A stretch of DNA of 60,337 bases from a virus (lineage: Duplodnaviria; Caudoviricetes): positions 1 to 60,337 of the IMG/VR virus record IMGVR_UViG_3300011400_000003, one strand, 5' to 3'. Positions 313 through 56,764 of this stretch are shown piece after piece. A model generated the notes under the pieces. That model worked only from the letters and a program-made list of their open reading frames with translations, was not told where the DNA came from and did no database searches. The translations under genes were made by a program, and so were the position numbers. Position 1 is the first letter of the stretch. Each line of letters begins with the position of its first letter.

Positions 313-3045
313 CTATTCCTCCTCTCCACTAGTTGATGCATCAAGAGTACTGAGCGATACACCAAGTCTTTGTGCAACTTCTGCTCTTGTTGCACCTTGT
401 GCTAGCAAGGAGCGAGCTAATGCAGTCTTAGATGCTGTCATCAATACTTGTCGTCTTGGTGTAGCTAGCTCTCGCACATTCTCAATGTCTGCCTTCTTAA
501 GTATCTGAGATAGTACATTGTCGCTAACCGCACCTGCTTGTACTGCATTCCATTCTTCAGGTGTGAACTTAATCTTCTTTGATCTAACACCTACTACTGC
601 ACGAGCACGCTCTAACTCACGCCCTCTAATCTTCTTACGGGAGGACTCTTCTAAATTGGGGTGTTCTGCAAAGTGCGCTCGTGTGATGGTGTTGGCTATA
701 GCCTGGGCCTTTCGTTCACGGGGGCGGTTACTAATGACTAATGAAAGCTTAGCCTTCAATGAATCAACTTCGTTCTTGTAGATCCTGGCTGCTGATGGTG
801 AACGTTGAAGCAATGGTGTATTCAATGCTTCAAGCCTGGCAGTGTTAGCTAAGTTCTTTAACTTGTTAGAGTGATTAGCATACAGCACTTCCATTGGTGT
901 ACCAGAAGAAAGTGTGTGTGCATCCTCTGCTATGGCTAGCTTGTTTACTTTTCTAGTCTTGGGTACTAACTCGCCTGCTTTGTTGCGACGCTTCTTACCT
1001 GTAGGTACGGTAACCTTACGACCAGTGACCCTATCAACGGGCCCACCCTCTGACTGAGGACGATCCTTAAAGTCGGGGAACTTACGTATCTCAGACTTTT
1101 TCCTAGAGATTAAGGTAGATGCGCCCCTGTTTGCGCCTTCCTGATACTCTGCTTTAAGGGCAGCAATACCATTACGTTTCTTAGATAGCTGCCAATCAAG
1201 GCCGTGTTTCTCTGAGTCAATCACTACCATAGAATGACGGATAGCACGAACAAGATGGTCATGTGGCGCAAGCTTAAGAGTCATGTCTGTAATTAAGTTA
1301 GAGACATTACCCATCTCTTGATTCTTCTTGTCCACTGTAATCTTAGGAATTACTAGATTCCCATCTTTGTCTTTAGGAATCTTATAGATCTGAGGATCGA
1401 AGTCTTTCAACCCATCAAGTGGATCAGTAGCAATGAACTTGTTAGAATTGTTAGGAATGACAAGTACAGTATCACCATCAAAGTCGGCACCAGACAACAC
1501 TTGTGCTGTGCTGTGATTAATACCAACAGCATCAATGGCTTCACCACCAATTAATTTCTGTCCTTCAGGATTCCTGTTATTAACTGTTAATCTAGGAATC
1601 TCAAATGTACCACCATGAGGATATCTAACAAGAACTACCTCTTCTCCATTGTTATAGTTAGGAGCATAGATCTCTCTCTTACCAAGGGTATCAAGAGGAA
1701 GGATGGCGTGCCAGTTTGATCTAGGTAAAGCGGCAGCTCTTAAGTGAACAGCAGCAGCATCTGCTTTGTCAGCAAACTTCTCAAGAAGAACCTTCTTAAC
1801 TGTAGGATTGGTTAACTCCATGATGTCTTCAAATTCTTTTTGTTCACGCTCGAAGGTAACATCAAGTTGTTCTTTAGCCAACTTAGGACTCTGCTTTGAA
1901 AGCATCTGAGAAGAAAGACTTTCTGCCCACTTGTGCCAGTCACCCTGCTCGTTGACAAGATTCATAGCAGAGACATTCTTTTCGTTAGGTTGTCCTTCAT
2001 TCTTAACAATCTGACGAACAACGGAACCAAAAGGATAGTCTGTATCTTCCTCAATCTCTTTCATAGCATCAAGTTTATTTCCTGTGTTCTTCTTATTAGT
2101 GTTGAACACAAGATCCACGCCATCAGGAAGGTTGTCCTTGTAGACAGCCATACCTTTCAGATAGTGGCCTTTACCTACTTGAATTCTAACTTGAGCATAC
2201 CGATTCTTACCTAAAGTAAGATCTTTTGCGCCTTCTCGAACATAGATTACACCATCAGCTTCTGCTCCACCTTCATCACCATAACGAATCATTACTCGTC
2301 TTGGACTGACTGGAATTGGAGGATGATTAGTTAAACCCCACTGTCTTCCACCATCAGATGTAAAGGCTTGAATTTGTTTGATGTTGAATCGCTGTTCCCA
2401 GGCTTCTTTTTGAGTAACACCAGGAGGAACGAGTACTTTGTTGTTGGTATCGAAAGTGGTCCCAACCTGTGGTGATTTAAACTGATGAACCCGGTATCCT
2501 TCTTCTTCAAGGATAGCTACTGCAGCAGAAAGTTTTTGTTGACTTATACCTTTGGATTCTAAACCATCACCAATTGGAACATAGCTTTCTACACCACTAC
2601 CAACATCAATTGGACTCTTAGTTTTCCAAGCTTCATCAACATGAGTCTTAAGCATGGCCGCTGTGTTAACGAGAATATCATTACGATCTTTAACACTAGG
2701 GTCTAAAAACGAACGGAAAGTAGTTTCAGGAACACCCATCGCGGCAGCCGCAGCTACACCAGACATACCCTTCTTATACTTTAACTCATGTGCACGTACA
2801 ATGTTATCTTGCCTCTGTCTGTGAAGCTCAATGGTTTTTCTCGCACGAAGTTGTGTTGTGGAAGAACACCCTAACGCTTCTGCTCGTTCTTTCTCAGTAA
2901 GTCCTTGTTTTCTAAGATCCGCTTCAAGATCTAAGAAAGAAGGATTACGAGGCGTTCCTTCATTACCTCCACTACCCCAAGGATAACGACCAGAATGACG
3001 AGGAGTACCATAGTGAGCAAGATAGTCGTCTTCTTCAATAATCAC
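313..3045 (-). CDS. Single-subunit two-barrel DNA-dependent RNA polymerase (YonO-like), with N-terminal LAH-YG tag and HTH segments
   Basis: LSGADFDGD catalytic motif with upstream YAP and RYPH motifs; 910 aa; C-terminal HTH (RAEVAQRLGVSLSTL). Confidence 0.88.
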   Translation of the reverse strand: MIIEEDDYLAHYGTPRHSGRYPWGSGGNEGTPRNPSFLDLEADLRKQGLTEKERAEALGCSSTTQLRARKTIELHRQRQDNIVRAHELKYKKGMSGVAAAAAMGVPETTFRSFLDPSVKDRNDILVNTAAMLKTHVDEAWKTKSPIDVGSGVESYVPIGDGLESKGISQQKLSAAVAILEEEGYRVHQFKSPQVGTTFDTNNKVLVPPGVTQKEAWEQRFNIKQIQAFTSDGGRQWGLTNHPPIPVSPRRVMIRYGDEGGAEADGVIYVREGAKDLTLGKNRYAQVRIQVGKGHYLKGMAVYKDNLPDGVDLVFNTNKKNTGNKLDAMKEIEEDTDYPFGSVVRQIVKNEGQPNEKNVSAMNLVNEQGDWHKWAESLSSQMLSKQSPKLAKEQLDVTFEREQKEFEDIMELTNPTVKKVLLEKFADKADAAAVHLRAAALPRSNWHAILPLDTLGKREIYAPNYNNGEEVVLVRYPHGGTFEIPRLTVNNRNPEGQKLIGGEAIDAVGINHSTAQVLSGADFDGDTVLVIPNNSNKFIATDPLDGLKDFDPQIYKIPKDKDGNLVIPKITVDKKNQEMGNVSNLITDMTLKLAPHDHLVRAIRHSMVVIDSEKHGLDWQLSKKRNGIAALKAEYQEGANRGASTLISRKKSEIRKFPDFKDRPQSEGGPVDRVTGRKVTVPTGKKRRNKAGELVPKTRKVNKLAIAEDAHTLSSGTPMEVLYANHSNKLKNLANTARLEALNTPLLQRSPSAARIYKNEVDSLKAKLSLVISNRPRERKAQAIANTITRAHFAEHPNLEESSRKKIRGRELERARAVVGVRSKKIKFTPEEWNAVQAGAVSDNVLSQILKKADIENVRELATPRRQVLMTASKTALARSLLAQGATRAEVAQRLGVSLSTLDASTSGEEE

Positions 3046-4979: not shown

Positions 4980-6179
4980 TCATATTTGAACAAATTCGTC
5001 AGATTTCTCAGGAATTAGATACTCTCTAATAAATTTACGCTCGTTAAAATTCTTCTTATGGTCTAGTGACCACTTGATTCCACGGTCCATTTCAGAATTG
5101 CTCACAAATATGTAATAATAAAGACTAGCGTAAAAGGTATTTAACCTATCAATACGCCCTTGGCATTGTATAAAGTTCTTATAGGAATAAGTCAGACTGT
5201 ATAAAACCATAGAATCAGTGCTAGTACAGTTCCATCCTTCAGCTCCAGCAGTGTACTGAACTAAGAAAATCCAGCTGTCATGGCCGTCCGATTCGGGTAA
5301 TTCGTCGTGTCTGTGCCCATTCCACTCGAATACATCTATCTCTTTACTTAGCGTCCGAAGGATCTCCAACTCATAATCAAACGTGTAAAACACGATCAAT
5401 CGTGGATGGAAAGCCATAAGGAATCTAAGCGCCTCCAGACGAGAAGGGTCAGAGTTAACAACTCTTCGCATAACTCGATACATTTCAGCAGCATCAATAA
5501 TTGGTCTTTGTTCATATACGTGCCACCGATCTTTAGTAACTTTTTTCACTAATTTTTCATTATAGCTAACTGGTATTTCGTTAAGAAAGCGCTCTGCTTT
5601 ACTAACATATGGCATCTCTACCAGGATGTCGTTCCTGAGAACTTCGAGTTTTCTTTCGTTAATGTATCCACGAATTTTTGGATATTTGACAAAGGGTTCG
5701 TAGATAACGTGACGTTGTTTAAATTGAGAGGCGTTCTTGTAGAAACCATTAGCAATGAAAACAGGGGCATAATCGAGCCAGGTATCGCCAGGGGTCGCAC
5801 TAAGTAATACCCAGTGGTTCTTAGCAGCAATTTTGAGAAACGATCGAACCCAGGATCCTCGTCCGACAAGTCTTTGCTCATCAAATATGAAGAAAGCATC
5901 TTTTACTCCCTCGTACTTCCATAAATTGTTCCAACTATTAACTTCTAGAAGTCCATGGTTTGTATCGGGGAAACCAATTCCAAACTTAGCAGCTTCGACT
6001 TCCCAGTCTAATGAATCACGTTTCTTGGCTGTAGTTATCACATAAATGTGCCGGGGGGATTCTTTTTCAATGTAGTACTGAAGCACCGTTGCAGACTTAC
6101 CCGCTCCTACACCGCCCCACAAAATCTTACCGTTACCGAGATGTTCCACTGCCTCCAACTGGTGCTCCATCAATTCCAT
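4980..6179 (-). CDS. SF2 DNA helicase
   Basis: GVGAGKS Walker A, variant DEQR box, LSATP, AGAEGWN, QCQGRIDR. Confidence 0.88.
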   Translation of the reverse strand: MELMEHQLEAVEHLGNGKILWGGVGAGKSATVLQYYIEKESPRHIYVITTAKKRDSLDWEVEAAKFGIGFPDTNHGLLEVNSWNNLWKYEGVKDAFFIFDEQRLVGRGSWVRSFLKIAAKNHWVLLSATPGDTWLDYAPVFIANGFYKNASQFKQRHVIYEPFVKYPKIRGYINERKLEVLRNDILVEMPYVSKAERFLNEIPVSYNEKLVKKVTKDRWHVYEQRPIIDAAEMYRVMRRVVNSDPSRLEALRFLMAFHPRLIVFYTFDYELEILRTLSKEIDVFEWNGHRHDELPESDGHDSWIFLVQYTAGAEGWNCTSTDSMVLYSLTYSYKNFIQCQGRIDRLNTFYASLYYYIFVSNSEMDRGIKWSLDHKKNFNERKFIREYLIPEKSDEFVQI

Positions 6180-6305
6180 TATTCACCTCCTAATATGACC
6201 GCCATCAATAAGAGCTTCTCTCCACGCCCAGAAAACAAAACCCCAAACAATAATGACAAGAACAACAAAAACTACCCAACTAATGATTTCAATAAAAATC
6301 ATTAT

Positions 6306-6473
6306 TCACCTCGCTTTATGTGCGTGCATATTACCGCTTTTAGTTAAGGCACATTCCGTATTGCATTTCGAGCAGATGCCATAACCAGAAAAATTACCGT
6401 TTGGTGGCATGGTGACTGTGTTAGGTGGTAGTCCGCCGCCTTCGCATTTTATTCCTCTATTTGACCAACCCAT
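6306..6473 (-). CDS. Small hypothetical Cys/His protein
   Basis: MGWSNRG... with AAGGAG RBS; CxxC and HxH. Confidence 0.5.
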   Translation of the reverse strand: MGWSNRGIKCEGGGLPPNTVTMPPNGNFSGYGICSKCNTECALTKSGNMHAHKAR

Positions 6474-6484
6474 TATTATTCTCC

Positions 6485-6754
6485 TTAGAAATCGACTACC
6501 GGTCCAGCACCTTCCCAATATGCTTTGCTCGTAAGAAATTTCAGGATTGGTTTGAGTTTATCGTCATTTATTAGTAAATCATATAACTCAGCGCAAGATC
6601 TACAAATACTGGCTAAATTAAACTCTTTACGCGTCGTGCTGCAACTACAACCCTGATCCCCACGATGAACTGCTTTATTGCAAAACATACACGAATAAAA
6701 TCTAGGCATGAACAGCGTGCATTCCATTACCAAATCCAAACAAATAGAATCCAA
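6485..6754 (-). CDS. Hypothetical Cys-rich protein
   Basis: ORF track; CxxC pairs; start uncertain. Confidence 0.45.
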   Translation of the reverse strand: MDSICLDLVMECTLFMPRFYSCMFCNKAVHRGDQGCSCSTTRKEFNLASICRSCAELYDLLINDDKLKPILKFLTSKAYWEGAGPVVDF

Positions 6755-7008
6755 TATGCGAGCTTTAACACGGCCATCATTAATGCGATCGTTACAACCG
6801 TAACAGCAAGTGCGCCTAGACCTTCCATTATCTCATCCATTATGCTCTCCTATTAAGTTCATCCAACAGGTGTCGAGCAATATCAATTTCACCCATGGCT
6901 TTAATAAATAGAACGGCCTCAATGGATAGAGGAGGAGTATCTAGTTTTAGTGAAAGAAGTCTGTCTCTTTGTGTTGCTAGAGTTTCATTTATGTCAGACA
7001 ACGTTGTT

Positions 7009-7338
7009 TTATCCATCATTCACCTCGTAATCTTTATTATACTCCATACGTTCCATTTTAGGAAAACACAACAAACCCTCGATAACTGTTGGAATATATT
7101 CAGGTAAAAGTTCACCGGTGACTGCGTTAAACAAGAAACTGTTCATTTGACCACATGCCATACGATGCCAAACACACATCGATCCTTCATAAATATGGTC
7201 AGAAGTACTAGTCTTAAATCTTCCACGAATCTTAGCTTTACGAGGACACCCAGGAATCATACAAACATCAAAAGGTCTAACCCATAAAGGATTCTGTGCA
7301 TCAGTAATCATAACAATATCAAAATTAATATTCATCAA
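7009..7338 (-). CDS. Hypothetical protein
   Basis: Tightly packed minus-strand ORF. Confidence 0.55.
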   Translation of the reverse strand: MMNINFDIVMITDAQNPLWVRPFDVCMIPGCPRKAKIRGRFKTSTSDHIYEGSMCVWHRMACGQMNSFLFNAVTGELLPEYIPTVIEGLLCFPKMERMEYNKDYEVNDG

Positions 7339-7565
7339 TCCCCCTCACCCAACATTCTTTTAGTTGTAAGTCCTCTTCTAGTTGGTCTATCGTATGTGTC
7401 AATAGTAATGAGAACGGCTTTACCATCCTCAATCACAACCGCGTCTAAAATTTTAGCGTCACCAAAATCTTTAACCACAACATCAGTACCTATAGATCCT
7501 ACGAATGCCTGTTCATCGAATCGATCGTGTTGATTAGCGGGTATCTTGAACGTTAGTCGCATCAT
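7335..7565 (-). CDS. Hypothetical protein
   Basis: Packed ORF with GAGGG RBS. Confidence 0.55.
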   Translation of the reverse strand: MMRLTFKIPANQHDRFDEQAFVGSIGTDVVVKDFGDAKILDAVVIEDGKAVLITIDTYDRPTRRGLTTKRMLGEGD

Positions 7566-7872
7566 TGCCCTCGACAAACTTTAAGTATTGTTCTTCAGTT
7601 ATCTCGATTGGTTCGTGGTATCGATCTTCCTGATACCAAAATCTAGGATTTCCAAATGTGGTTGTTCGCATACTACGATTTGGAAGGCCATCAAAGGTTG
7701 GGCGTTCCATACCAAATTGAGGCCACCCCATCCAATCACGTTCTTCAGCTGGTTCGAGAATCGGTTTCCATGCCATTTGACACCGTCCTTTGATTAGTTT
7801 ATCGCAGCCCATGTAATCACAGCCTCTATATTTACCGTCGGGGCAAAATATATTTTTTACTTTAGCCATCAA
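7534..7872 (-). CDS. Hypothetical protein
   Basis: Packed ORF. Confidence 0.5.
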   Translation of the reverse strand: MMAKVKNIFCPDGKYRGCDYMGCDKLIKGRCQMAWKPILEPAEERDWMGWPQFGMERPTFDGLPNRSMRTTTFGNPRFWYQEDRYHEPIEITEEQYLKFVEGNDATNVQDTR

Positions 7873-8065
7873 TACTCTCGTATTCTACAAAGGTACAACC
7901 AGGATGTTGACAATGTCGTTTTTTAATACTAAATCTAATAACGTCACCAAGTAACCACGGCCCCCACATCGGAACATGAAACTCGCCATTGGGAGAAACT
8001 ATGCCGGTTGAAATATGAACTTCGTCACCGTTATCTCTAATTCCTATCCTCCAAGCAGCTAACAT
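7862..8065 (-). CDS. Hypothetical protein
   Basis: Packed ORF with AAGGA RBS. Confidence 0.5.
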   Translation of the reverse strand: MLAAWRIGIRDNGDEVHISTGIVSPNGEFHVPMWGPWLLGDVIRFSIKKRHCQHPGCTFVEYESIDG

Positions 8066-8073
8066 AAGTTTCC

Positions 8074-8298
8074 TTAAGGTTTAATATCATCCCAATCTTT
8101 ACCAAAAGGCCAGAACACAGCATATCCATAACCAAGCGTCGATACATGACGAAGTGCATCGATCTCTTCTTTATGTAACCCTATAGGATAAACAGAATCA
8201 TCATAGGCGAACACAAACCAAGCGCCTTCTTCTTTAGGATTATGAAGCTCTCGTAATTGATTAGGAGAAAGTATTTCTTTACCTGTTATTGCAACCAT
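8074..8298 (-). CDS. Hypothetical protein
   Basis: Packed ORF with GAGGTG RBS. Confidence 0.55.
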   Translation of the reverse strand: MVAITGKEILSPNQLRELHNPKEEGAWFVFAYDDSVYPIGLHKEEIDALRHVSTLGYGYAVFWPFGKDWDDIKP

Positions 8299-8585
8299 GC
8301 TCGCACCTCTTTAGTTCGTACGTTGTATCGCATGATCAAATCAACGCCAGTAACCTGAAGAATTTGAACTGTCTCGGGAGTGAGAACAAGCGTTCCAATA
8401 GCTTTTCCACGTAGATCAATGATGGGGTATTCAACAGGAGCCCGTACTGCTCGTCCTGTACATCCACCAACTCCACAGAGTAAAGTTGGGGGTAGTTGCT
8501 GCAGAAAAACCTCTGGGGCTTGAAAATCTCCCTGTTTGAGTGTTTTAGTTGAACCACAATTGGCGCAAGTGTACGTCATTTCCAT
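8286..8585 (-). CDS. Hypothetical Zn-ribbon protein
   Basis: CANC...CGVGGC. Confidence 0.55.
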   Translation of the reverse strand: MEMTYTCANCGSTKTLKQGDFQAPEVFLQQLPPTLLCGVGGCTGRAVRAPVEYPIIDLRGKAIGTLVLTPETVQILQVTGVDLIMRYNVRTKEVRAWLQ

Positions 8586-8794
8586 TAGTCAAACCTTTTG
8601 TCGGTAACTGCTACACCCTTACCGTCCGCATCGAATATGCCTGCACAATCCTTACACGTCTTGAGACCGGTGCTATTAGGTTCCTCGAAATTGTCTTTGG
8701 AGCAATTTGAATCATGTACATAAAACTGTCTGTTACCAGCTAAATCGTGTTCATCCATTGTAACTCCTAGGGGTGGGTGGTTGGGCATTCCCAC
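8585..8794 (-). CDS. Hypothetical protein
   Basis: Packed ORF; start may be the internal ATG (MDEHD). Confidence 0.5.
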   Translation of the reverse strand: MGMPNHPPLGVTMDEHDLAGNRQFYVHDSNCSKDNFEEPNSTGLKTCKDCAGIFDADGKGVAVTDKRFD

Positions 8795-8795
8795 A

Positions 8796-8853
8796 AAGAA
8801 AAGGATAGGCCTTGTGCCTGTTGGCAGAGGCTTCTCCTCTTTTGAACTACTTA
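8796..8853 (-). terminator. Intrinsic terminator
   Basis: AGGAGAAGCC...GGCCUAUCCU stem followed by UUUCUUU. Confidence 0.65.
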
Positions 8854-9065
8854 ATTCGTTTGATGTTGGCTTTTTTTGCGAACGTCATGGATGCTAGCGT
8901 ACGGCTAGGTAGACTGTCACATACCGTCATGTGGAATGTAACACCATCGTCTTCAGCGTCTTCAACGCGGTTAACCATGAATGCTACTTCCTCAGCGAAG
9001 GTAATTTCATCGCCTACCTCAATACTGTTTGCTGCAACCATTTCGTATTCGAAATTGGCTGTCAT
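8847..9065 (-). CDS. Cassette-encoded small protein
   Basis: AAGGAG RBS; own promoter (9091) and terminator. Confidence 0.7.
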   Translation of the reverse strand: MTANFEYEMVAANSIEVGDEITFAEEVAFMVNRVEDAEDDGVTFHMTVCDSLPSRTLASMTFAKKANIKRIK

Positions 9066-9090
9066 CAATTACTCCTTTGTAGTTGTTCCA

Positions 9091-9114
9091 TTATAAGGAG
9101 TGTAAAATATGCGA
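9091..9114 (-). promoter_or_regulatory. Phage-specific promoter
   Basis: TCGCATATTTTACACTCCTTATAA. Confidence 0.8.
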
Positions 9115-9115
9115 C

Positions 9116-9149
9116 AAAAGGAGAAGCCTTGTTAGGGCCTCTCCCTTTG
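9116..9149 (-). terminator. Intrinsic terminator
   Basis: GGGAGAGGCC-CUAACAA-GGCUUCUCCU followed by UUU, abutting the next promoter. Confidence 0.7.
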
Positions 9150-9168
9150 GATCGTTGGTCTACGTGTG

Positions 9169-9369
9169 TTAGTTCTTGTTGAACACGTTCGACGCTGTGC
9201 GCCATGCCGTTTTCGCCGTGACAACGCTGCCTACGGCGGCAAGCGCCACCATCGCAATTCCGAACAATTGGAATCGGATACTGGTCCTGCCCTCGTAGCC
9301 GGCATTGAATGCGTCACGCATGGTGAGGTTGTCTTTGCTGTTCAATTCACCGCTCCTTGTAGTGGTCAA
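9169..9369 (-). CDS. Cassette-encoded small membrane protein
   Basis: One hydrophobic segment; between promoter 9378 and terminator 9116. Confidence 0.65.
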   Translation of the reverse strand: MTTTRSGELNSKDNLTMRDAFNAGYEGRTSIRFQLFGIAMVALAAVGSVVTAKTAWRTASNVFNKN

Positions 9370-9377
9370 TTTCTCCG

Positions 9378-9401
9378 TTATAGACGCTGTAAAATATGCG
9401 A
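9378..9401 (-). promoter_or_regulatory. Phage-specific promoter
   Basis: TCGCATATTTTACAGCGTCTATAA. Confidence 0.8.
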
Positions 9402-9443
9402 AAAAAAAAGAAAAGGATAGGGCTTGTTGGGCCTTCTCCTTTT
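9402..9443 (-). terminator. Intrinsic terminator
   Basis: AAAAGGAGAAGGC...GCCCUAUCCUUUU followed by a long U tract. Confidence 0.7.
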
Positions 9444-13813: not shown

Positions 13814-14005
13814 TATTATGTTCCTTTCAATTGTGGTTAGCTAACAACGAAGGGCTGTGAGTAATCATCGAGAATAATTAAGGTGAGCGCAGGAGTAAAT
13901 CCAGCCCTTAATGAAACTCTAGAAGTATTTCAGCGTACGCCCCTCCAGTAAGTTCCTTAGGCTTACCTTCTATAACGTACATCCATACTGTCCTCACAGC
14001 ACCAG

Positions 14006-14360
14006 TGGACCTGGGGGGAATCGAACCCCCGTCCAGAACTCCTTTAACTGCTCGTTTACTGCAATAGCCACTGGAACCGTGGCCGCTCTCACGCTCCACC
14101 ACCTTCTTTTTCTGCGGAGAATAAAGAAGGAAACGCATTACTCTTTCCTTACTTAGCCGTTAGTTAATAGGGTGGACCAACCCCAGACGTGGCTACTACT
14201 ACGCAGCAACCAGTTGAGCGTCAGCGCAAAGCGCCTCGTACTCAGCGTCGATGTCACCGATGTTGGTGTCATTTAGTTTGGTTCCGTGTTTTAACGTCAC
14301 TTCGGAGATGACGTGCAGAAGAAACAATCTCCAGTAGATCTGTCGAATCCTATCAGGCCC
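14006..14360 (-). ncRNA. ssrA: tmRNA (355 nt); tag ORF 14199..14270 encodes (A)DTNIGDIDAEYEALCADAQLVAA
   Basis: 5' GGGCCUGAUAGGAUUCGAC; 3' GGGGGUUCGAUUCCCCCCAGGUCCA; G3:U70 Ala identity pair; UAAAU before the resume codon; tag ends LVAA followed by three UAG. Confidence 0.95.
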
Positions 14361-29675: not shown

Positions 29676-29758
29676 TACCGGGCACGGGATTCGAACCCGT
29701 ACGTCCTTTCGGACCGAGGATTTTAAGTCCACTGCGTCTGCCGTTTCGCCAGCCCGGC
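29676..29758 (-). tRNA. tRNA-Leu, anticodon UAA (reads TTA); CCA not encoded
   Basis: GCCGGGC/GCCCGGU acceptor stem, CUUAAAA anticodon loop (29725-29723), long variable arm GUCC-GAAA-GGAC, GGUUCGAAUCC T-arm. Confidence 0.95.
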
Positions 29759-48796: not shown

Positions 48797-49339
48797 TTAC
48801 CGCTGAGCGGTTTTGATGAGTCGGTTTACAGTTCTTTTTAGTCGTTGAGATTCAACGACATCTTTAACTTTACTTATACTATTACTCATTACTGTTTGGC
48901 CTTTTGGACTAGAAAGGAAAGCAGCACCTCCAGCAGCGATTGCTACAAAAGCGGCTTTCGTTCCCATTTCTCCAGTAATTCGACGAGCAATAGCACCGCC
49001 GGTTTGCTTAGCAGCTTTGCCCTTATTTTTTCTAGATCGTTCTGATCGAGCTTTGGATGCGTGCTTAGATAAATCTTGATTATTAAGATGTCTGTCAAAC
49101 GCCTTTGCGTAAGTTGGATCTTTCTTTTTCTTTGCTTCTACGGTAGCCTTAATCAATTTTCGACGAGTTCCAGCACCTTCGCCAAAGAATAATTTTGCTC
49201 TTGCGAACTCTTTTGCATCTTTAGCAGCTGCACGATCAGTGCCTCTAGAAGCACCGCCTCGATCATCATTACGAATACCCCATCGCATTCCTTTAATACC
49301 GAAGTGTTCTAGGAACTCCTCGGTTTGTAAATCGTTCAC
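48797..49339 (-). CDS. HxGxKGMRWG-tag protein (putative internal virion protein)
   Basis: FLEHFGIKGMRWGIR; basic body; C-terminal hydrophobic segment. Confidence 0.75.
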   Translation of the reverse strand: MNDLQTEEFLEHFGIKGMRWGIRNDDRGGASRGTDRAAAKDAKEFARAKLFFGEGAGTRRKLIKATVEAKKKKDPTYAKAFDRHLNNQDLSKHASKARSERSRKNKGKAAKQTGGAIARRITGEMGTKAAFVAIAAGGAAFLSSPKGQTVMSNSISKVKDVVESQRLKRTVNRLIKTAQR

Positions 49340-49352
49340 TTGAACACCTCCT

Positions 49353-50882
49353 CTATAAAACTGCGGCTACTTTTCTATCAAATCTCTTATTAAGAATTTC
49401 TGCAAAGTTTGAGAACTGACTAGCATCCATCTTACCTTCAGCACGCATTCTTCTTAACGAATACATTTGTGTTTCACGTTGACTTTCGATGAACTCTTGA
49501 GCTGTTTGAGATACGTTTCTAGCTCTTCCAGCATTGCCTCTAGCATTATAACCACCAAAGTTAGGAGGATCAAACTTAAAATTACGTGGACCACTGTTTT
49601 CTTGACGAAGAGCATATAAAGCTAGAGCAAATGGAACTGTAAAAACTAAACTTTTTGCGGCGCCAATTGCGGCACCCTTTGCGGCTTTTCTTCTCATCTT
49701 TCGTGCTCTACGTTGACGAGGTGTCAATTTTACATCACGAGCAAGCCTACGTTTATCATTTCTAACACCCCATCGCATTCCTTTAATACCGAAATGCACA
49801 AGAAAATTATCTACGTCATTAATTGCCGCCATAAATAATTCACCTAAAGTCATTTGCATCAATTTAATCTCAGATTCCCCAACAAAGGTATGCGCATTTA
49901 AGGTATCAAGTTGAAAATCCGACCCATTTAAAAGACGCAATGGTGTTTTAGCAAGTCTTCCTGAATCATTAAAATCAATTAACGCATTATATCCACTATC
50001 TTTTACCATCTTAAAAAATTGTTGTACATCAGGATGACCGTCCAGCCCATTAGCCCATTGAATAACAAAATTTCCGAAATTTTGTTTAGCTAATCCATCA
50101 ATTGCTTTTTCTTTATCTACTTCACTTAATGTTCCCCAAATTCTTCCAACTGGCGTATTGGCTATAATTCTTTGATCTCTAAGAAGGTTTTTAAAAATAT
50201 TAAACGTTTCTTCTCCTGATGGCGCTTTAATTGGAACCTGAGATCTAAGATTAACCAGCCAACCACTTTTATTATCATAACCCCAAGTTTTCCACCATTT
50301 TGGTAATTCTGCTTTATAACGTTGAACATCTGAATCTTCAAAAGCAGCGAAAAACCCTTGAGGTCTAATTTCTGTTTCTTGAATGGTCGATAATCTTTTA
50401 AAAATAGAACCAGCAGGAAGATCTATTTTAGTGCCCCAATGATCGTCTAAGCCAGGTACAACCCCTTCTAACGTACTCATTGGAGATTCTGAAAGAACTT
50501 TAAGTTGCTCTAAATTAAGCTGAGCATAATCATCTTGAAGGCCTTTTACATCTAATAGAAAATCGCTGCCAACACCATACTTTTTACCTAAATATATAGC
50601 TCCACCGGCTAAAAGTGCACCACCAACACCTATACCAACACCTAAAGCAATTTTCTTTTGCTTATCGGTTAAATGAAAACCTTTATCGTCATCTTTTCCG
50701 GTATATGGACCGTACTTTCGGTTAAGTTGATCGCTTCGAAAATCTTTATCTGAAAATACGCCCTTAATTTTCTTTTGTACATCATCATTAAATTGTGAAA
50801 TGCTATTTGTGATATCTTTTCTAATCCCCCATCGCATTCCTTTAACACCATAGTGCTCAAGGAAGACGTCTACGTCATTCAC
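49353..50882 (-). CDS. Double HxGxKGMRWG-tag protein (two fused modules)
   Basis: FLEHYGVKGMRWG at the N-terminus and internal FLVHFGIKGMRWG; two TM-like segments. Confidence 0.8.
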   Translation of the reverse strand: MNDVDVFLEHYGVKGMRWGIRKDITNSISQFNDDVQKKIKGVFSDKDFRSDQLNRKYGPYTGKDDDKGFHLTDKQKKIALGVGIGVGGALLAGGAIYLGKKYGVGSDFLLDVKGLQDDYAQLNLEQLKVLSESPMSTLEGVVPGLDDHWGTKIDLPAGSIFKRLSTIQETEIRPQGFFAAFEDSDVQRYKAELPKWWKTWGYDNKSGWLVNLRSQVPIKAPSGEETFNIFKNLLRDQRIIANTPVGRIWGTLSEVDKEKAIDGLAKQNFGNFVIQWANGLDGHPDVQQFFKMVKDSGYNALIDFNDSGRLAKTPLRLLNGSDFQLDTLNAHTFVGESEIKLMQMTLGELFMAAINDVDNFLVHFGIKGMRWGVRNDKRRLARDVKLTPRQRRARKMRRKAAKGAAIGAAKSLVFTVPFALALYALRQENSGPRNFKFDPPNFGGYNARGNAGRARNVSQTAQEFIESQRETQMYSLRRMRAEGKMDASQFSNFAEILNKRFDRKVAAVL

Positions 50883-52627
50883 TCGAACGCCTCCTTGTTA
50901 AGCTTGTAAGCAACATAAGCGTCCATCATAGCAGAAACGTTATCAATCTTGTCTTCTGCTCGTTTCTTGAACAATTTTCGATTTCCGTTAGTATCTTCCA
51001 GAGTAACAGCATTACCCATAGCAAAAGTCATAAGTTCTTGATCAAATATAAGTGCTCGTTGCTCAGCTAAAATCTTCAATTCGCCAAGAGGAACCGACTC
51101 TGTTCTTGCTCCTTGAATGACTTTCTCTATACCATACGGGCCGTTTTCTTGTTCCCATCTGGTAACAAAGGCCTTAGCGTTGTATGGATCGAAGCCAAAG
51201 CATCGAACATCATACTCTTTTGCTAATATAAAAGCATCGAGATCATCATAAACTTCATTATCAACATCAAGAACGTTTCCGTCCATGATAACAAGACTTC
51301 CCTCTCGAATGAATTCTTCATACTTCATTCGCATGGCGCCTGGAAGTTTAAGCAAAGTCAATTCTGTAATATAACTTCGAGTCTTGACGCCAAAGCTTCC
51401 GTTTGAAAGCGGAAACAGAAAAGTAAACGCACAGAAGTCGTCGCCTTGGGATAGGTCAGCACCAAGAGCACACGGAATCTGCCAGAACTCTTTCGGTGGA
51501 TGTGGAAGAGTGTCTTCGTAAGTGAAGAAATATGTATAGCCTTCCATTGGAATACCGAAACGCTTAGCTAAAATATCATTACGAGCAGCAGGAGCTTTCT
51601 CGGCTCTTTCTACATCTAAATGATAGACGTCATACGTTACGGTTTTTCCTAGATTAGGCTGAGCTTTCAACCACATCTCTGGTTGAGCAACTTCTTCAAT
51701 ATCGTCAAGTTTGTAATGCCAGATTGAAATATGAGGAGCGTGATACTCTCCTCTAAGAATTTTACCCAATTCTAATTTAATAGTGTCGCCAGATCCGTTT
51801 CTAACCGTTCCTTCAGAACTAATAGCGACAATCAACCAGTCGTCCATCTTGGAAGCGCCCTGCTCGATTGCTCCAACGACATCCTCTCGAATATCGCCGG
51901 AAAGCCATTCGTCAACAGTTGAAATTTTTGGTCTTAATCCCTGCAGCTTGTTGATAGCCATAGGACGAATCTCAAGTATTGACCCAGTTAGAAAATTTTC
52001 AATTCCCTTTTTAGTTGAAGCCAGTTTTTGACGCATAGCGGTTGATCCACTAGTGTTTCTAACTGTTCCCTCTGTAAGGAATTTGAACAACGGACCTCTA
52101 GCTCTGGTAATTGCAGTTCTAAAAGGGGATAGAACTTCATCTGCTTGCTTCATGGTTGGAGCGGTATTGATTTGGTGAGTGGTTGCAACATCAACATTAA
52201 GAAAATATGCTTGAATGCAACAAGCATACATTGATTTAGCAGCACCTCTAGCCACAATCAAATATTGTTTTGTAACTAATCGTTTCTTAAGTAATTTCGT
52301 AACGTATCCACCAGGTTCACCTTCTTCTCCTGGTTGATAAACGCTTCGTTCAACATAGTAATACCAACCAAATATCTGTTCTGCCCATACTTTGAACGTA
52401 TCAAGAAGATACAAATCAGTACCATCAGTAAGCGTTAATTCCCATTCGCAATACTTGATGAAACCTTCAACTGCTTCTGAATCATACCAAATATCTGGAT
52501 TAGCTATAAGATCATCGATACGATTCATCTCTAGAGAAATTAATTCGTTTACAGGAATTTCTCCACGTAAAACTTGGTCTCTAAATATACCATAGTACTG
52601 TGGCGTAGCGGTATTTGATAAAACCAA
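50879..52627 (-). CDS. terL: Terminase large subunit
   Basis: VARGAAKS Walker A, VDEW Walker B, GADLS, FDPY, KIDNVSAMMDA. Confidence 0.95.
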   Translation of the reverse strand: MVLSNTATPQYYGIFRDQVLRGEIPVNELISLEMNRIDDLIANPDIWYDSEAVEGFIKYCEWELTLTDGTDLYLLDTFKVWAEQIFGWYYYVERSVYQPGEEGEPGGYVTKLLKKRLVTKQYLIVARGAAKSMYACCIQAYFLNVDVATTHQINTAPTMKQADEVLSPFRTAITRARGPLFKFLTEGTVRNTSGSTAMRQKLASTKKGIENFLTGSILEIRPMAINKLQGLRPKISTVDEWLSGDIREDVVGAIEQGASKMDDWLIVAISSEGTVRNGSGDTIKLELGKILRGEYHAPHISIWHYKLDDIEEVAQPEMWLKAQPNLGKTVTYDVYHLDVERAEKAPAARNDILAKRFGIPMEGYTYFFTYEDTLPHPPKEFWQIPCALGADLSQGDDFCAFTFLFPLSNGSFGVKTRSYITELTLLKLPGAMRMKYEEFIREGSLVIMDGNVLDVDNEVYDDLDAFILAKEYDVRCFGFDPYNAKAFVTRWEQENGPYGIEKVIQGARTESVPLGELKILAEQRALIFDQELMTFAMGNAVTLEDTNGNRKLFKKRAEDKIDNVSAMMDAYVAYKLNKEAFE

Positions 52628-52646: not shown

Positions 52647-53039
52647 TTAAATAAATGATGAACCTGGTTTAAGATTAATTCTTCTACCTTTATGTCTATT
52701 AATAAATGCCGCAATTGGTTTTCCTGCAGGACTGTTTGCAATAGCTGCAACAGAAGAAATAAGCCCTGCAGTAGCAACAACTGCTTTAATATGCTTTTCG
52801 CCTCGTTTAATTGTTCCAGGATTAAGACGATCAAAATTCTGCTCTAAACCAAGTCGAGTATTCACTGTTTGTAATTGTTTATTGGTTAAAGAAGTTTTTG
52901 GCTTCTTTCGAAGATCGTTCGCTGTTTTATAATCTACAGTTACTCGACCGGTTCTTGAGTCTACCTTATTACGAATACCCCATCGCATTCCTTTAATACC
53001 GTGGTGTGCAAGCACACCTTCTACATCCATAAATATCAC
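52647..53039 (-). CDS. HxGxKGMRWG-tag protein
   Basis: VLAHHGIKGMRWGIR; LTNKQL...RL.LE; hydrophobic segment. Confidence 0.75.
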   Translation of the reverse strand: MIFMDVEGVLAHHGIKGMRWGIRNKVDSRTGRVTVDYKTANDLRKKPKTSLTNKQLQTVNTRLGLEQNFDRLNPGTIKRGEKHIKAVVATAGLISSVAAIANSPAGKPIAAFINRHKGRRINLKPGSSFI

Positions 53040-53054
53040 CTCCTTATTAATAAC

Positions 53055-54407
53055 TCACGCTAGAGCAGCAATCAAATCAGTTTCCATGGCATCTCTAGTT
53101 GCGGTCCATGGGTTTCCTGTTTCTGGATCGTTTGCTCCAGAGTTTGCTAAATTAACAACTTCGTGTGGATCAGTATCCAACGCATACAACTCAAATTCGT
53201 CTTCAGGAAAATTAATGTCAAAACAAAAATGATTCGTGTGATACCTTATAAGTTTACGAGTACTAGTACTAATTGCATCAAATGATGGTTGGTCTTGCGG
53301 AATACTAAACGGATCACCTAAAGGATCGGTTCTACCCTGGATAAGTAATTCTCTATCATCATAATTAATAGGATTAACTGCTACATCAGTTAAATCTTCT
53401 CCAGTTACATCAGTAAGACCTGGAGTTACACCTTGTATGGCACAAATTGTAGATGTAATATCTATGTTAGTGGTCTGGGGTGTTACTATGTTATTCTCTG
53501 GGAAGGAAGGACCTGCACATATTAAAGGAACCCTAAGAGATCCGTAATCATATGGTGTGTTCTTAGCAGGACCAGTTACCGCCTTTAAAAGAACCTCTCC
53601 ATAATGAATCGAATTGTCATTTGTAAATATAACGTCAGTATCGCTCATATCTATAAGATCTAAAATACTTGCTAAAAATGCGTCAGCTCCACTACATTCT
53701 CGAAGTTGTCTACGAAACAATTGACGAATAGCATTTCTATCATCTGTATCTAATGCATTACGTAACTGAACCCAATGGGCTCTAAGATTAAGTGATGTTT
53801 CTTCAATTATGCTATGCTTAGCATGACTCCAAATATGATTATGTTGAGGTCGAGGATGCATGGGATCATGGGGATTTGTTGGAGCTACATATAAAAACCA
53901 AGGCTCAGTAGCTGCTGCAAGAAAATCTTGAACCTGGGTATAATAGTAATCTAAATGATAATCAGACGGTGTTGAAACTCCTCCTGGACTACCATTATAA
54001 ATAGAATATCCATGTGCCCACCCAAGTTTACCGGCAGCATTATGCACTAGCTGACGCCAAAAATCCCAACCATCACCAACCGGTCGTTCGTCATTTAACA
54101 TTCCTCGATCATTTAAATACTTACCTATAAGTCCTGTATAAATCCCATCATCATTCAACCAAGCAGCAATAGTATTATCAAAATCGTAATCGACATTATC
54201 TAAATCATAATCATTATTATCAAAAACACCATGGTGTTTACCCAATTGACCAGTCATAAAACCAACTCTAGCCGGTTGGCAAAGACCAATTGACTGTCTT
54301 GTATTAATAAATGTGGTGCCTAATCGTTTTAACCTTGATAATGTTGGCATATAAAACGAACAATCATATCGCATGTCGTCAGTAACAAACATCAAAGTGT
54401 TAGTCAT
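53055..54407 (-). CDS. Formylglycine-dependent (type I / S1) sulfatase
   Basis: TDD, CQPAR..FMTG, GKYLN, PWFLYV...PH, NDN, K..Y...RVPL, ELY.L.TDPHE..NLA; no signal peptide. Confidence 0.88.
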   Translation of the reverse strand: MTNTLMFVTDDMRYDCSFYMPTLSRLKRLGTTFINTRQSIGLCQPARVGFMTGQLGKHHGVFDNNDYDLDNVDYDFDNTIAAWLNDDGIYTGLIGKYLNDRGMLNDERPVGDGWDFWRQLVHNAAGKLGWAHGYSIYNGSPGGVSTPSDYHLDYYYTQVQDFLAAATEPWFLYVAPTNPHDPMHPRPQHNHIWSHAKHSIIEETSLNLRAHWVQLRNALDTDDRNAIRQLFRRQLRECSGADAFLASILDLIDMSDTDVIFTNDNSIHYGEVLLKAVTGPAKNTPYDYGSLRVPLICAGPSFPENNIVTPQTTNIDITSTICAIQGVTPGLTDVTGEDLTDVAVNPINYDDRELLIQGRTDPLGDPFSIPQDQPSFDAISTSTRKLIRYHTNHFCFDINFPEDEFELYALDTDPHEVVNLANSGANDPETGNPWTATRDAMETDLIAALA

Positions 54408-55270
54408 GTATGCTCAACCCTTAAGAAATATCGACCCACCCTAAAGCCCTTACTACCAGAACCCGCAGTCTTAATGACTTTAAACACTGGTCCATATATA
54501 TCACCAACATCTGGAATAGTATTAGCTGTAGAATGTGTCGCTACTGGAGTAGCATTTCCATTATCCCAATCCGCCAAACTATCTTCAATCCATGCACGAA
54601 TCATTGGTGAAGAAGGATCACCATCACATTGAATAATAAACCATACCCATCCTGTGCTAGCCGCCACATTTGTGTCAGTGTCGCCACGAGTGCTTGCGTC
54701 TGCTGTCTTAAAATGCCATGTATTATCAGCCGAACTATACCTAAAGTAATATCCATTGGTATGTTCGGTTCCAGTTTTTACATTCCCTAAACCAATTTCA
54801 ATCGTAAAATCATTAGTTCCATTATTAAGTACTGGAATTTTACATCTACACGCCCAAGTAAATGCCGGTGATCCCTCCATATGAACTATGTGTCTAGAAA
54901 TAGTTGCAACATCAGCATTCGCAACCACACTCATAATAGCAAAGCCAAAATTACCTGAGTCTGCAGCTGCAGCCAAAGTAATGTTAGCTGTTGCAACTAA
55001 ATCAGCAAGCCAACCAAGTTGTCCAATTTCTCCATCTTCTGTGGTTCCACCGAAAAAATAATCTCTCTCTTCAATGAAAGAATCCATCTCAATAAGACGG
55101 CGTAATGAACCAATTCTAGAATCTAACTCGTCTAATTGCTCTTGTGTAGTGTCGCCACTAAGTTCTCCACCGGGTGTGGCCGGTTGTTCTGTAGCAGTCA
55201 TCGGAATATCAACACCGTCAATTTCTGCTCCAGCTACAAAATTTGGTTTACGACGAACAGTTTGAGGCAT
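54404..55270 (-). CDS. Putative virion beta-sandwich (receptor-binding-like) protein
   Basis: TTQEQLDEL linker followed by a lectin-like beta domain; coupled to the fibre and sulfatase genes. Confidence 0.55.
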   Translation of the reverse strand: MPQTVRRKPNFVAGAEIDGVDIPMTATEQPATPGGELSGDTTQEQLDELDSRIGSLRRLIEMDSFIEERDYFFGGTTEDGEIGQLGWLADLVATANITLAAAADSGNFGFAIMSVVANADVATISRHIVHMEGSPAFTWACRCKIPVLNNGTNDFTIEIGLGNVKTGTEHTNGYYFRYSSADNTWHFKTADASTRGDTDTNVAASTGWVWFIIQCDGDPSSPMIRAWIEDSLADWDNGNATPVATHSTANTIPDVGDIYGPVFKVIKTAGSGSKGFRVGRYFLRVEHT

Positions 55271-55273
55271 AAT

Positions 55274-56182
55274 TTACACTCCAGCGATGACTAATATTCT
55301 ACGACCAGAAGCAATGTTGGACCCAGTTTCATCTGTTAAAATAAGCCTATCTGCTGTTGAACCTACAGCTTCGTACTCTTCTTCTGCCCCAGTTGCACTA
55401 ACAACCACACGAACAATGAAATCGTGAATGTTAGTCAAGTTTAGATTATGATCAACATTAGCGGTTGGTGCTCCATTAGGAACTACCCCAGCAAAGAAAC
55501 GAGGACGCAGAGCTATCGCAGAAGTAAGAGCAGCAACTGCATCGTCGTTATCTTCAAGTAATCCTTGAATCTCGATTAAAGTATCATAAGCAGCAGCGGC
55601 GCCATTACTAATAGCAGCAACTGCAGCGGCTACCACTTGTGCAAAACTGTTACCTTCAAGTAATGGAGAGTCAAGAACAGTACCACTAAATACTCCACTA
55701 GAATATGCTAGATCTAATGATGCTGTGTCACTTATACTAATTGAAGAACGTACTTCATTAGTAAAGTCCAAAATCGCTCTTACTTGAGCAGCAGTTAAAT
55801 CAGTTGGATCACCAGAACCAGCACCTAACGCACGACCCTTTATAGTAGCTGCAGCCATATCAGCAAGTTCAGTATTAGTAATAATACCCGGCTTGATCGT
55901 AGCTACTAAAATTCCAGGAGAACCAGCATTATCTGTATAACTCCAATCAAGGAAACTATTATCATTGATCATCACCGCAATAAAATCTTCAACTTCTTCT
56001 TGCGTAAGTCCGCCGCCTCCACCAAGTTCGCTGGCAAGAGGAACTAAAATATCAACTCCACCCAGACGAAACGCAAGCTTTCCTTCCACTGAATCAAACC
56101 AAATATCCTGATTAGCCGGAGTTGATTGATCTAGAGGAAGTTTAACTCTGCCCTTAAACTCATAGTCTTTGAAAGTCTCCAC
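55274..56182 (-). CDS. Fibre-like structural protein
   Basis: LADMAAATIKGR...GDPTDLTAAQV and AYDTLIEI motifs common in phage fibres; VDHNLN. Confidence 0.65.
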   Translation of the reverse strand: METFKDYEFKGRVKLPLDQSTPANQDIWFDSVEGKLAFRLGGVDILVPLASELGGGGGLTQEEVEDFIAVMINDNSFLDWSYTDNAGSPGILVATIKPGIITNTELADMAAATIKGRALGAGSGDPTDLTAAQVRAILDFTNEVRSSISISDTASLDLAYSSGVFSGTVLDSPLLEGNSFAQVVAAAVAAISNGAAAAYDTLIEIQGLLEDNDDAVAALTSAIALRPRFFAGVVPNGAPTANVDHNLNLTNIHDFIVRVVVSATGAEEEYEAVGSTADRLILTDETGSNIASGRRILVIAGV

Positions 56183-56191
56183 TGCTTCCTC

Positions 56192-56764
56192 CTAGGAAAC
56201 ATTCCAATCTCCAGCAATAGCCACGGGCCAAGTTGCTAGCGAACGATTAAGGTTGACATACGTGATACTTTGTGGTTCAATCTCATTACCATCTTCATCT
56301 CTGAATTGAAACCCAGCAGGGTTGTAACCCAAATTGTGATCCATGATCCAAACAATAGCCGGCGTGGCTTGAGTTCCAGATGCTGCCGGATCTGATAATC
56401 CCACGTCGTCCTCCTCGTCATCCTCAGCAAGAGCCACCTCTCTCAGATAGCTAAGTCTTGTTAAGAATTCATCTCGTTGTTTTTCAATAGCATTAATATT
56501 AAAAGACGTTGTTGGTGGATCAAATAAGAGACGAACACTTACATACATCAACGTTTTAAGATTACTCAATTGATCTACTGGAAGACTCAAGTCAACCCAA
56601 TTAGCTGTATCATCTTCAATACTAAATCCTGGGGGACCAACACCTATTTGGTTTACTATGGAGAATGTAGCATTAATGTGTGTAATAATATCAAGATCGA
56701 ATGCTGTATCTGCTTCCCCAACACCTAAGTTCTTCTTGGTACTAGTAAGAATACTGTCTTCCAT
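56192..56764 (-). CDS. Head-to-tail adaptor with C-terminal extension
   Basis: SILTSTKK.LG, FD.DII.HIN, QIGVG, VRLLFDPP; extra W...HNLG..P domain. Confidence 0.8.
   Translation of the reverse strand: MEDSILTSTKKNLGVGEADTAFDLDIITHINATFSIVNQIGVGPPGFSIEDDTANWVDLSLPVDQLSNLKTLMYVSVRLLFDPPTTSFNINAIEKQRDEFLTRLSYLREVALAEDDEEDDVGLSDPAASGTQATPAIVWIMDHNLGYNPAGFQFRDEDGNEIEPQSITYVNLNRSLATWPVAIAGDWNVS

Follow-up and report, generated by a model that had tools for sequence, protein, structure and literature searches.

Phage particles carry glycosidases, lyases and deacetylases which open a path through the glycans of the host surface. Virion-associated receptor-modifying enzymes (tailspike depolymerases, O-antigen or capsule deacetylases and esterases, sialidases) are among the known systems with which the locus analysed here can be compared. 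The locus lies in a virus record of IMG/VR (IMGVR_UViG_3300011400_000003; Caudoviricetes) of 60,337 bases, corresponding to a complete virus (CheckV 100%) and referred to below, at its full length, as the window. On the minus strand a gene for a predicted formylglycine-type sulfatase, P0001, follows the genes for a fibre-like protein, P0003, and a lectin-like protein, P0002. The likeness to the known systems consists in the location of an enzyme within a fibre cassette, beside a carbohydrate-binding tip, with a presumed action on surface glycans. The differences concern the chemistry, predicted to be sulfate ester hydrolysis, the maturation to formylglycine, which would be supplied by the host, and the organization as a separate subunit instead of a fibre domain. 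Because P0001 shows no fusion to any virion protein, and is known here from genes alone, it falls outside the class of enzyme-bearing fibres and tailspikes as usually defined. Full-text literature searches found no report of a sulfatase in a phage particle; in the accessible parts of a review (PMC9853417) sulfatases appear only as bacterial mucin enzymes, while those of a further study (PMC11077953) assign 13 sulfatases located in prophage regions to the auxiliary metabolic genes.

The most interesting part of the results is a conserved lectin/sulfatase pair, common to Actinomycetota chromosomes and phage fibres. For the window, we hold midway between doubt and acceptance the reading that P0002 and P0001 form a two-subunit lectin–sulfatase module, carried by an accessory tail fibre and dependent for its maturation on the formylglycine-generating enzyme (FGE) of the host. 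Under this reading the region 56182-53055 (minus strand) would be an accessory tail-fibre cassette, in which P0003 provides the shaft, P0002 a ConA-like lectin tip and P0001 the formylglycine-type sulfatase. P0001 would be made in the cytoplasm, where the host FGE would turn Cys43 into formylglycine; the matured enzyme would bind the lectin-like P0002 and ride on the fibre tip, where sulfate, or an ester of similar kind, would be stripped by it from a glycan of the host surface, so that the receptor is either made accessible or destroyed. The physical complex, the incorporation in the virion, the host maturation and the substrate are all parts which we infer.

P0001 (450 amino acids (aa), 53055..54407, minus strand) matches the Pfam family PF00884 (Sulfatase) over residues 19-323, with an E value of 2.3e-22 and a score of 80.1 bits against a cut-off of 25, and its closest solved relative, by a phmmer search of PDB, is the choline sulfatase 6fny (E 2.5e-13). 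Compared with the described sulfatases of family S1 (PF00884; choline sulfatase BetC, structures 6fny, 6g5z and 7pth), it is alike in the Pfam match, in the CxPxR signature with its downstream MTG, and in the metal-binding Asp/Asp/Asp/Asn and sulfate-binding Lys/His/Lys residues. It differs in being leaderless, phage-encoded and coupled to the gene of a lectin-like fibre-tip protein, and in the replacement of GKxH by GKYLN. The signature reads C43-Q-P-A-R47-V-G-F-M-T-G; in an alignment of 19 sequences C43, P45, R47 and G53 are invariant, as are H180, D264, N265 and K282, while conservation of D10, D11 and K96 is 90% or more. In the six sequences nearest to P0001, D10, D11, C43, P45, R47, K96, H180, D264, N265 and K282 are all invariant. 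An initial annotation of the window, made from the DNA alone, had listed the motifs DD, CxPxR, GK, PH, DN and K as present: all were found again and are conserved in the alignments, with the one exception of the canonical His of GKxH. Save for this residue, P0001 has the sequence features of an S1 sulfatase, and the enzyme looks intact.

The same residues are kept at a considerable distance. The sulfatase P0004, 48% identical to P0001, also keeps the metal-binding, formylglycine and sulfate-binding residues. Retention of all catalytic residues but the GKxH His in P0001, and of CxPxR, PH, DN and Lys in P0004 and in P0270, a sulfatase from a related phage, at 30-48% identity, argues for selection on catalysis. 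As the P0001 open reading frame (ORF) opens at the first possible start codon, with the metal-binding DD already at residues 10-11, the protein has no signal peptide, as had been proposed; in relatives with leaders DD is found at about 45-120 and CxPxR at 76-176, compared with position 43 in P0001. The NCBIfam choline sulfatase model TIGR03417 scores 75 bits against a cut-off of 433, and all equivalogs are far below their cut-offs. The names given to relatives by the Joint Genome Institute (JGI) are N-acetylglucosamine-6-sulfatase or arylsulfatase.

Among 50,697 phage records, tblastn searches with P0001 and with P0002 returned nothing at E-value limits of 1e-5 and 1e-3, and the four matches which P0001 has at E <= 1 are marginal; the cultured-phage records contain no real relative of this sulfatase. 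Pattern scans of IMG/VR with the sulfatase found no relative either. Such scans do miss relatives, since the phage record G006, described below, surfaced only through P0003. A scan with A4 gave one distant locus, without a sulfatase.

The gene for P0002 (288 aa, 54404..55270, minus strand) is joined to that of the sulfatase by an ATGA stop/start overlap at 54404..54407 (minus strand), which is visible in the DNA as the initial annotation had stated. That annotation had also called the product a beta-sandwich protein, and the structure model bears it out. The AlphaFold2 model has a predicted local distance difference test (pLDDT) of 90.7 and shows a helix at residues 42-64 followed by an all-beta domain; this value depends on the depth of the alignment, as 50 rows give 90.7 and three rows 43. 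The top Foldseek match in PDB is 2a5z (SO2946; E 3.4e-08), followed by ConA-like jelly rolls, i.e. GH16 enzymes, a legume lectin and lectin-like subdomains from the binding regions of clostridial toxins. The best BFVD matches are to proteins of uncultured phages, several of them labelled Mtd_N, 'phage tail repeat' or SO2946-like_C. The Pfam score of P0002 itself for SO2946-like_C is under the cut-off (21.7 vs 27), while the best E value among family members is 7.1e-17. P0002 is therefore described here as a ConA-like or SO2946-like jelly-roll protein, likely the lectin subunit of a fibre tip.

An exhaustive profile search gathered 744 cluster representatives of the P0002 family (E <= 0.001). 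The best 150 of these 744 measure 147-1186 aa and, with few exceptions, their best-matching stretch ends close to the C-terminus. When 50 members were scanned, SO2946-like_C was found in 14, Laminin_G_3 in 12, Mtd_N in two and Collagen in one, and the PHROG matches within the family are to minor tail, tail fibre, tail spike and baseplate proteins. In terms of sequence, P0002 is a member of a family of fibre-tip domains. It is alike in fold and family to the C-terminal SO2946-like_C or ConA-like (Laminin_G_3) domains of phage fibres, of which 2a5z is the solved example; its sub-branch differs in that the domain is paired with a sulfatase and, in metagenome-assembled genomes (MAGs) of Actinomycetota, carries a signal-like N-terminus in place of a fibre shaft. 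The C-terminal extension, of about 215 aa, of the 638-aa sulfatase P0005 was considered as a possible fused P0002 domain and set aside, since neither BLASTP nor hhalign supports it.

P0003 (302 aa, 55274..56182, minus strand) ends with a stop codon located three nucleotides ahead of the ATG of P0002. A search with P0003 gave 37 proteins (E <= 0.001), among them that of its own record, with full-length relatives 38-66% identical. The protein bears a central tail-fibre motif, which also matched 375 stretches of IMG/VR and agrees with the fibre gene previously proposed ahead of P0002; the evidence for a fibre is this motif, the PHROG matches being of unknown function. Fusions of P0003 to P0002-like domains in other proteins were looked for and discarded, as these were generic matches to the fibre motif. 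A complex prediction for P0001 and P0002, run with a separate alignment for each chain and no controls, gave an ipSAE of 0.00 in two runs, a value which counts neither for nor against binding.

The association of lectin and sulfatase is found again outside the window. The closest sulfatase which could be placed on DNA, 46% identical to P0001, lies on L080, a contig of 9.55 kb with 51% G+C, binned with a Saccharibacteria MAG. Directly upstream of it, a 903-aa protein contains a BppL_N domain and collagen repeats and has many tail-fibre PHROG matches. The last 263 residues or so of this protein are 57% identical to residues 26-288 of P0002, so that the order along the chain is BppL_N, Collagen and P0002-like domain; by the ORF coordinates, the sulfatase ORF starts inside the stop codon of the fibre. 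The only window genes matched in L080 are the P0002-like domain and the sulfatase; the pair therefore moves together, between backbones that are unrelated. The sulfatase of L080 (4660-5979, plus strand) contains two adjacent in-frame stops and a Pro in place of His180, and is probably decaying. No FGE match was found in the 0.7-Mb bin which holds L080. The contig is phage-like, and its binning with Saccharibacteria may be wrong. Beside the pair, L080 also encodes a 688-aa PF04185 phosphoesterase with two FN3 domains and 'minor tail protein' PHROG matches (6037-8103, minus strand) and a GT1 glycosyltransferase (8167-9405, plus strand).

G006 is a 40-kb IMG/VR record, 68% complete and with 47% G+C, related to the window by its terminase large subunit (TerL; 83% identity), portal (70%) and capsid fusion (57%). 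Upstream of its endolysin a cluster of large genes encodes a P0003-like protein with the fibre motif, a 793-aa protein, the 271-aa P0271 with a fibre-type N-terminal motif and the sulfatase P0270, followed by proteins of 477 and 931 aa, the latter with Ig-like domains. P0270 is leaderless and has intact motifs; its start overlaps the stop of P0271 and it is 30% identical to P0001 over the full length. The same trio as in the window is suggested for one further phage, as the longest contig listed for P0087 (P0003-like, 66% identity), for P0272 (P0002-like) and for P0004 has in each case 10,437 bases.

Two collection scans returned, in all, 158 loci for relatives of the sulfatase, with flanks of variable extent and, in some cases, on very short contigs. 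A P0002-like ORF was found in six of them (L080, L003 as a fragment, L082, L083, L084 and L086), always directly upstream of the sulfatase and ending at its start. In L082-L084 and L086 the upstream ORF ends at 4992; the sulfatase ORFs of L084 and L086 are called from 4989. The L084 lectin was confirmed as a member of the P0002 family by hhalign (probability 100, E 1.8e-61, 250 columns). When 301 genomes of the same class as L084 were sampled, the lectin was found in only two, both already known. A seventh pair, L247 (G001:C1:2223067-2227038), is present in one of these two, an Acidimicrobiia MAG, as a second copy, 45% diverged, with the same layout and a leader on the lectin only.

The lectins of L082, L083, L084, L086 and L247 have a signal-like N-terminal region, made up of a charged N-terminus with RR, a hydrophobic stretch rich in Ala, Gly and Thr, and an Ala/Pro-rich linker. 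The sulfatases paired with them in the MAGs are leaderless and start directly at the fold, while sister sulfatases of the same clade bear their own leaders, two of which are just below the TIGR01409 cut-off (15.5 and 14.6 vs 16.7). The layout of the MAG pairs fits a co-export of the two proteins as a complex. In the established mechanism known as twin-arginine translocation (Tat) 'hitchhiking', exemplified by the small and large subunits of hydrogenases, one partner carries the leader for both. The MAG pairs are alike in having an RR-containing leader on one partner while the other is leaderless and translationally coupled; they differ in that the Tat nature of the lectin leader rests on sequence reading, TIGR01409 not being detected, and in that the complex is predicted from genes.

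The origin of P0001 was approached by an IQ-TREE analysis of 33 sulfatases, from which L004, L089, L094, L132 and L147 were left out because of doubtful ORF calls, together with the broken L080 copy and P0270. P0001 groups with P0004 (support 100/100) and with P0005, within a clade of 22 rows, again supported 100/100, which includes four subclades with unresolved branching. All 13 rows of known origin in this clade come from Actinomycetota MAGs (Acidimicrobiia, Actinomycetes). An FGE was found above the cut-off in all four Actinomycetota MAGs with a lectin/sulfatase pair. In the complete phage record no match to FGE (PF03781) or to radical-SAM proteins (PF04055) was found, while the positive controls of both searches did match; the initial annotation was right in reporting no formylglycine-generating enzyme in this genome. 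Its further proposal of a virion-associated, host-matured enzyme is kept here as a prediction, favoured by the fibre-tip linkage in the window, L080 and G006, by the distribution of FGE between phage and MAGs, and by the position of P0001 within the clade of Actinomycetota sulfatases.

In the most likely mode of action, the lectin-like subunit and the sulfatase would work as one unit. In cells, a leader on the lectin would carry the unit out, where scavenging of sulfate esters is probable, given that pairs lie beside TauD and Cys/Met enzymes. In phages, the leader would have been swapped for a fibre shaft, as in L080 and P0084, or, as in the window, for a short N-terminus, with the shaft encoded by a separate gene ahead of it. 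According to a broader reading, which taken as a whole is still doubtful, Actinomycetota and their phages would share an undescribed two-subunit enzyme, exported by a Tat piggy-back route, repeatedly grafted onto fibre tips and dependent on host FGE, and its phage form would be the first virion-borne sulfatase.

Several observations weigh against these readings. P0001 is a separate, unfused ORF, as are the sulfatases of L080 and G006, and the canonical His of GKxH is absent from it, the site facing a gap in the comparison with 6fny. As this loss is common to the whole P0001 subfamily in the 19-sequence alignment, cellular members included, it is better regarded as a trait of the lineage than as decay, and the GKYLN variant presumably resembles eukaryotic GNS/Sulf enzymes. 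The broken state of the L080 sulfatase suggests that the enzyme is dispensable there. P0271, the fibre-tip-like protein of G006, was considered as a relative of P0002, and hhalign does not place it in the family. The cassette, upstream of TerL, is separated by about 17 kb from the tail module, so that its description as lying 'inside the virion gene module' is loose; it lies between a connector-like gene and the DUF7211 and TerL genes. The paired lectins occupy three separate branches of a FastTree phylogeny without support. TIGR01409, a model of Tat signals, gave no match to the MAG lectin leaders; export by the Sec route is hence possible, and would leave lectin and sulfatase in different compartments. 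The pairs of L083, L084 and L086 adjoin genes for TauD and for Cys/Met enzymes dependent on pyridoxal phosphate (PLP), together with a major facilitator superfamily (MFS) transporter, which is a sulfur-scavenging setting, and the cellular role of the module may be nutritional. Finally, at 41% the G+C content of the window is much lower than in the MAG loci covered here (66-68%); an Actinomycetota host, as the initial annotation had proposed, agrees with the capsid and TerL relatives.

The nutritional setting bears directly on the first alternative, in which lectin and sulfatase would be a soluble accessory enzyme, made late and not included in the particle, either released at lysis or active in the dying cell. 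Such an enzyme could desulfate capsule, slime or debris, so that the progeny escape trapping by destruction of receptors, or could free sulfate for the infected cell as an auxiliary metabolic gene. This is what would be expected of a sulfatase encoded by a separate gene with no virion-anchoring domain, located in the transcribed strand just downstream of the lysis genes, having cellular copies among sulfur-scavenging genes (TauD, MFS transporter, Cys/Met PLP enzymes), and the prophage sulfatases in the accessible parts of PMC11077953 have been classed in this way. The claim that P0001 acts on the surface 'rather than' as a metabolic gene is, for the cellular pairs at least, weakened by these neighbours. 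However, the phage lectin lacks the signal-like N-terminus of the cellular forms and its counterparts are fused to fibre shafts in L080 and P0084. Until the cell lyses, a cytoplasmic pair would have no evident way to reach sulfate esters outside it, and the G006 sulfatase lies within a cluster of large genes, one of which carries the P0003 fibre motif. Overall, a soluble enzyme seems unlikely.

The two-subunit module on a fibre could also have the proposed architecture and a different chemistry. P0001 would then be a formylglycine-dependent hydrolase of phosphoesters or phosphonate esters, cutting phosphodiester-linked (teichoic-acid-like) wall glycopolymers. Promiscuity between sulfate and phosphate esters is established in the sulfatase superfamily; P0001 has weak matches to the PehA phosphoric/sulfuric ester hydrolase (NF045661, E 1.2e-06) and to PF01663, it lacks the GKxH His, and the L080 pair adjoins the PF04185 phosphoesterase with two FN3 domains. 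The best matches are nevertheless to sulfatases, i.e. PF00884, TIGR03417 and a solved choline sulfatase, the JGI names of the relatives point the same way, and the cellular neighbours indicate sulfur and not phosphorus, which makes this chemistry improbable. Least probable of all is a non-enzymatic sulfatase-fold protein, acting in the phage as a fibre assembly factor or as a subunit binding a sulfated ligand, for instance in a host unable to make formylglycine: it would account for the slot just downstream of the fibre-tip gene, where tail-fibre chaperones usually sit, and for the L080 copy broken at its active-site His in a bin with no FGE match, but not for the catalytic residues which P0001, P0004 and P0270 have kept.

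If the enzyme of the preferred reading, the lectin–sulfatase module, does ride on the fibre, the removal of sulfate esters would be added to the chemistries of the virion, and it would follow that the uncultured host, probably an actinobacterium, has sulfated polymers in its envelope. The function of the particle would depend on the FGE of the host, so that a factor inside the cell could restrict the host range. If the broader reading, that of a grafted two-subunit module, were true, sulfated surface glycans would be receptors of, or barriers to, phages in such hosts. Independently of the virion, what the conserved pair predicts for Actinomycetota is a sulfatase of heteromeric type, possibly exported by Tat hitchhiking.

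The borders of the cassette were defined by comparison with related phages. On the left side is a gene for a connector-like virion protein (56192..56764, minus strand; PF24829, 107.6 bits; phrog_4247, 'virion structural protein'), 48% identical to gp11 of the Gordonia phage Conley. On the right side are a gene for a 130-aa DUF7211 protein (52647..53039, minus strand; PF23847), which weakly matches Conley gp12 and is 37% identical to the product of the G006 gene located just upstream of TerL, and then TerL itself (50879..52627, minus strand; PF20441 and PF03354; 78% identical to Conley and 83% to G006). The tape-measure and minor-tail genes are located at 31.5-41 kb. Between gp11 and TerL, Conley differs in having one DUF7211-type gene, of 520 aa, in the place where the window has four, namely those for P0003, P0002, the sulfatase and the 130-aa DUF7211 protein; the cassette is therefore regarded as an accessory insertion in the left arm. 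Within 52-58 kb, 15 promoter-like sites were counted, with no excess over shuffled sequences (17.6 +/- 4.2), and nine terminator-like sites, compared with 3.9 +/- 1.8 in shuffles.

Two features of the flanking genes were observed along the way. The PF24829 protein, of 190 aa, has an 80-residue C-terminal extension, which matches other PHROGs and is absent from the homologues of Conley (115 aa) and G006 (117 aa). Three TerL-flanking genes (52647-53039, 49353-50882 and 48797-49339, all on the minus strand) contain four copies of a 25-aa DUF7211 motif, H-x-G-[IV]-K-G-M-R-W-G-[IV]-R. Each copy opens a protein or a protein half, with hydrophobic or basic stretches further along, and counterparts exist in Conley and G006; a literature search on DUF7211 found no paper.

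The genome as a whole is that of an uncultured relative of Actinomycetota phages. In its capsid-protease fusion the window shares about 50% identity with phages of Gordonia cluster DJ (Deejayvirinae), Arthrobacter and Streptomyces; this protein has matches in 244 phage records, none of them reaching 60% identity. The cluster DJ phages, such as Conley and Tanis, are alike in gene order, with identities to Conley of 78% for TerL, 61% for the portal and 51% for the capsid-protease fusion, and both they and the window have two paralogues of the major tail protein. The minus strand carries nearly all window genes. According to PHROG and Pfam matches, their order along the transcribed strand begins with an endolysin, a weak holin-like gene, small genes, an HNH endonuclease and the connector-like PF24829 gene, and continues with P0003, P0002, the sulfatase, the 130-aa DUF7211 protein, TerL and two more DUF7211 proteins. 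These are followed by the portal, the capsid-protease fusion, tail genes, the tape-measure gene, minor tail genes and replication genes.

By capsid and TerL, the nearest relatives in culture are phages of Gordonia, Arthrobacter and Streptomyces, all of them high-G+C genera; G+C content is about 41% in the window (35-46% across 2-kb bins) and 47% in its relative G006. A transfer-messenger RNA is located at 14003-14360 (minus strand), matching the full Rfam model RF00023 with 78.8 bits against a gathering score of 47; ARAGORN agrees and predicts a 23-residue tag. A tRNA-Leu(TAA) is found at 29676-29758 (minus strand). Finally, a 910-aa protein (313-3045, minus strand) matches phrog_4291 from end to end (1123 bits), a group labelled 'RNA-dependent RNA polymerase', which is an odd label for a siphovirus with double-stranded DNA.

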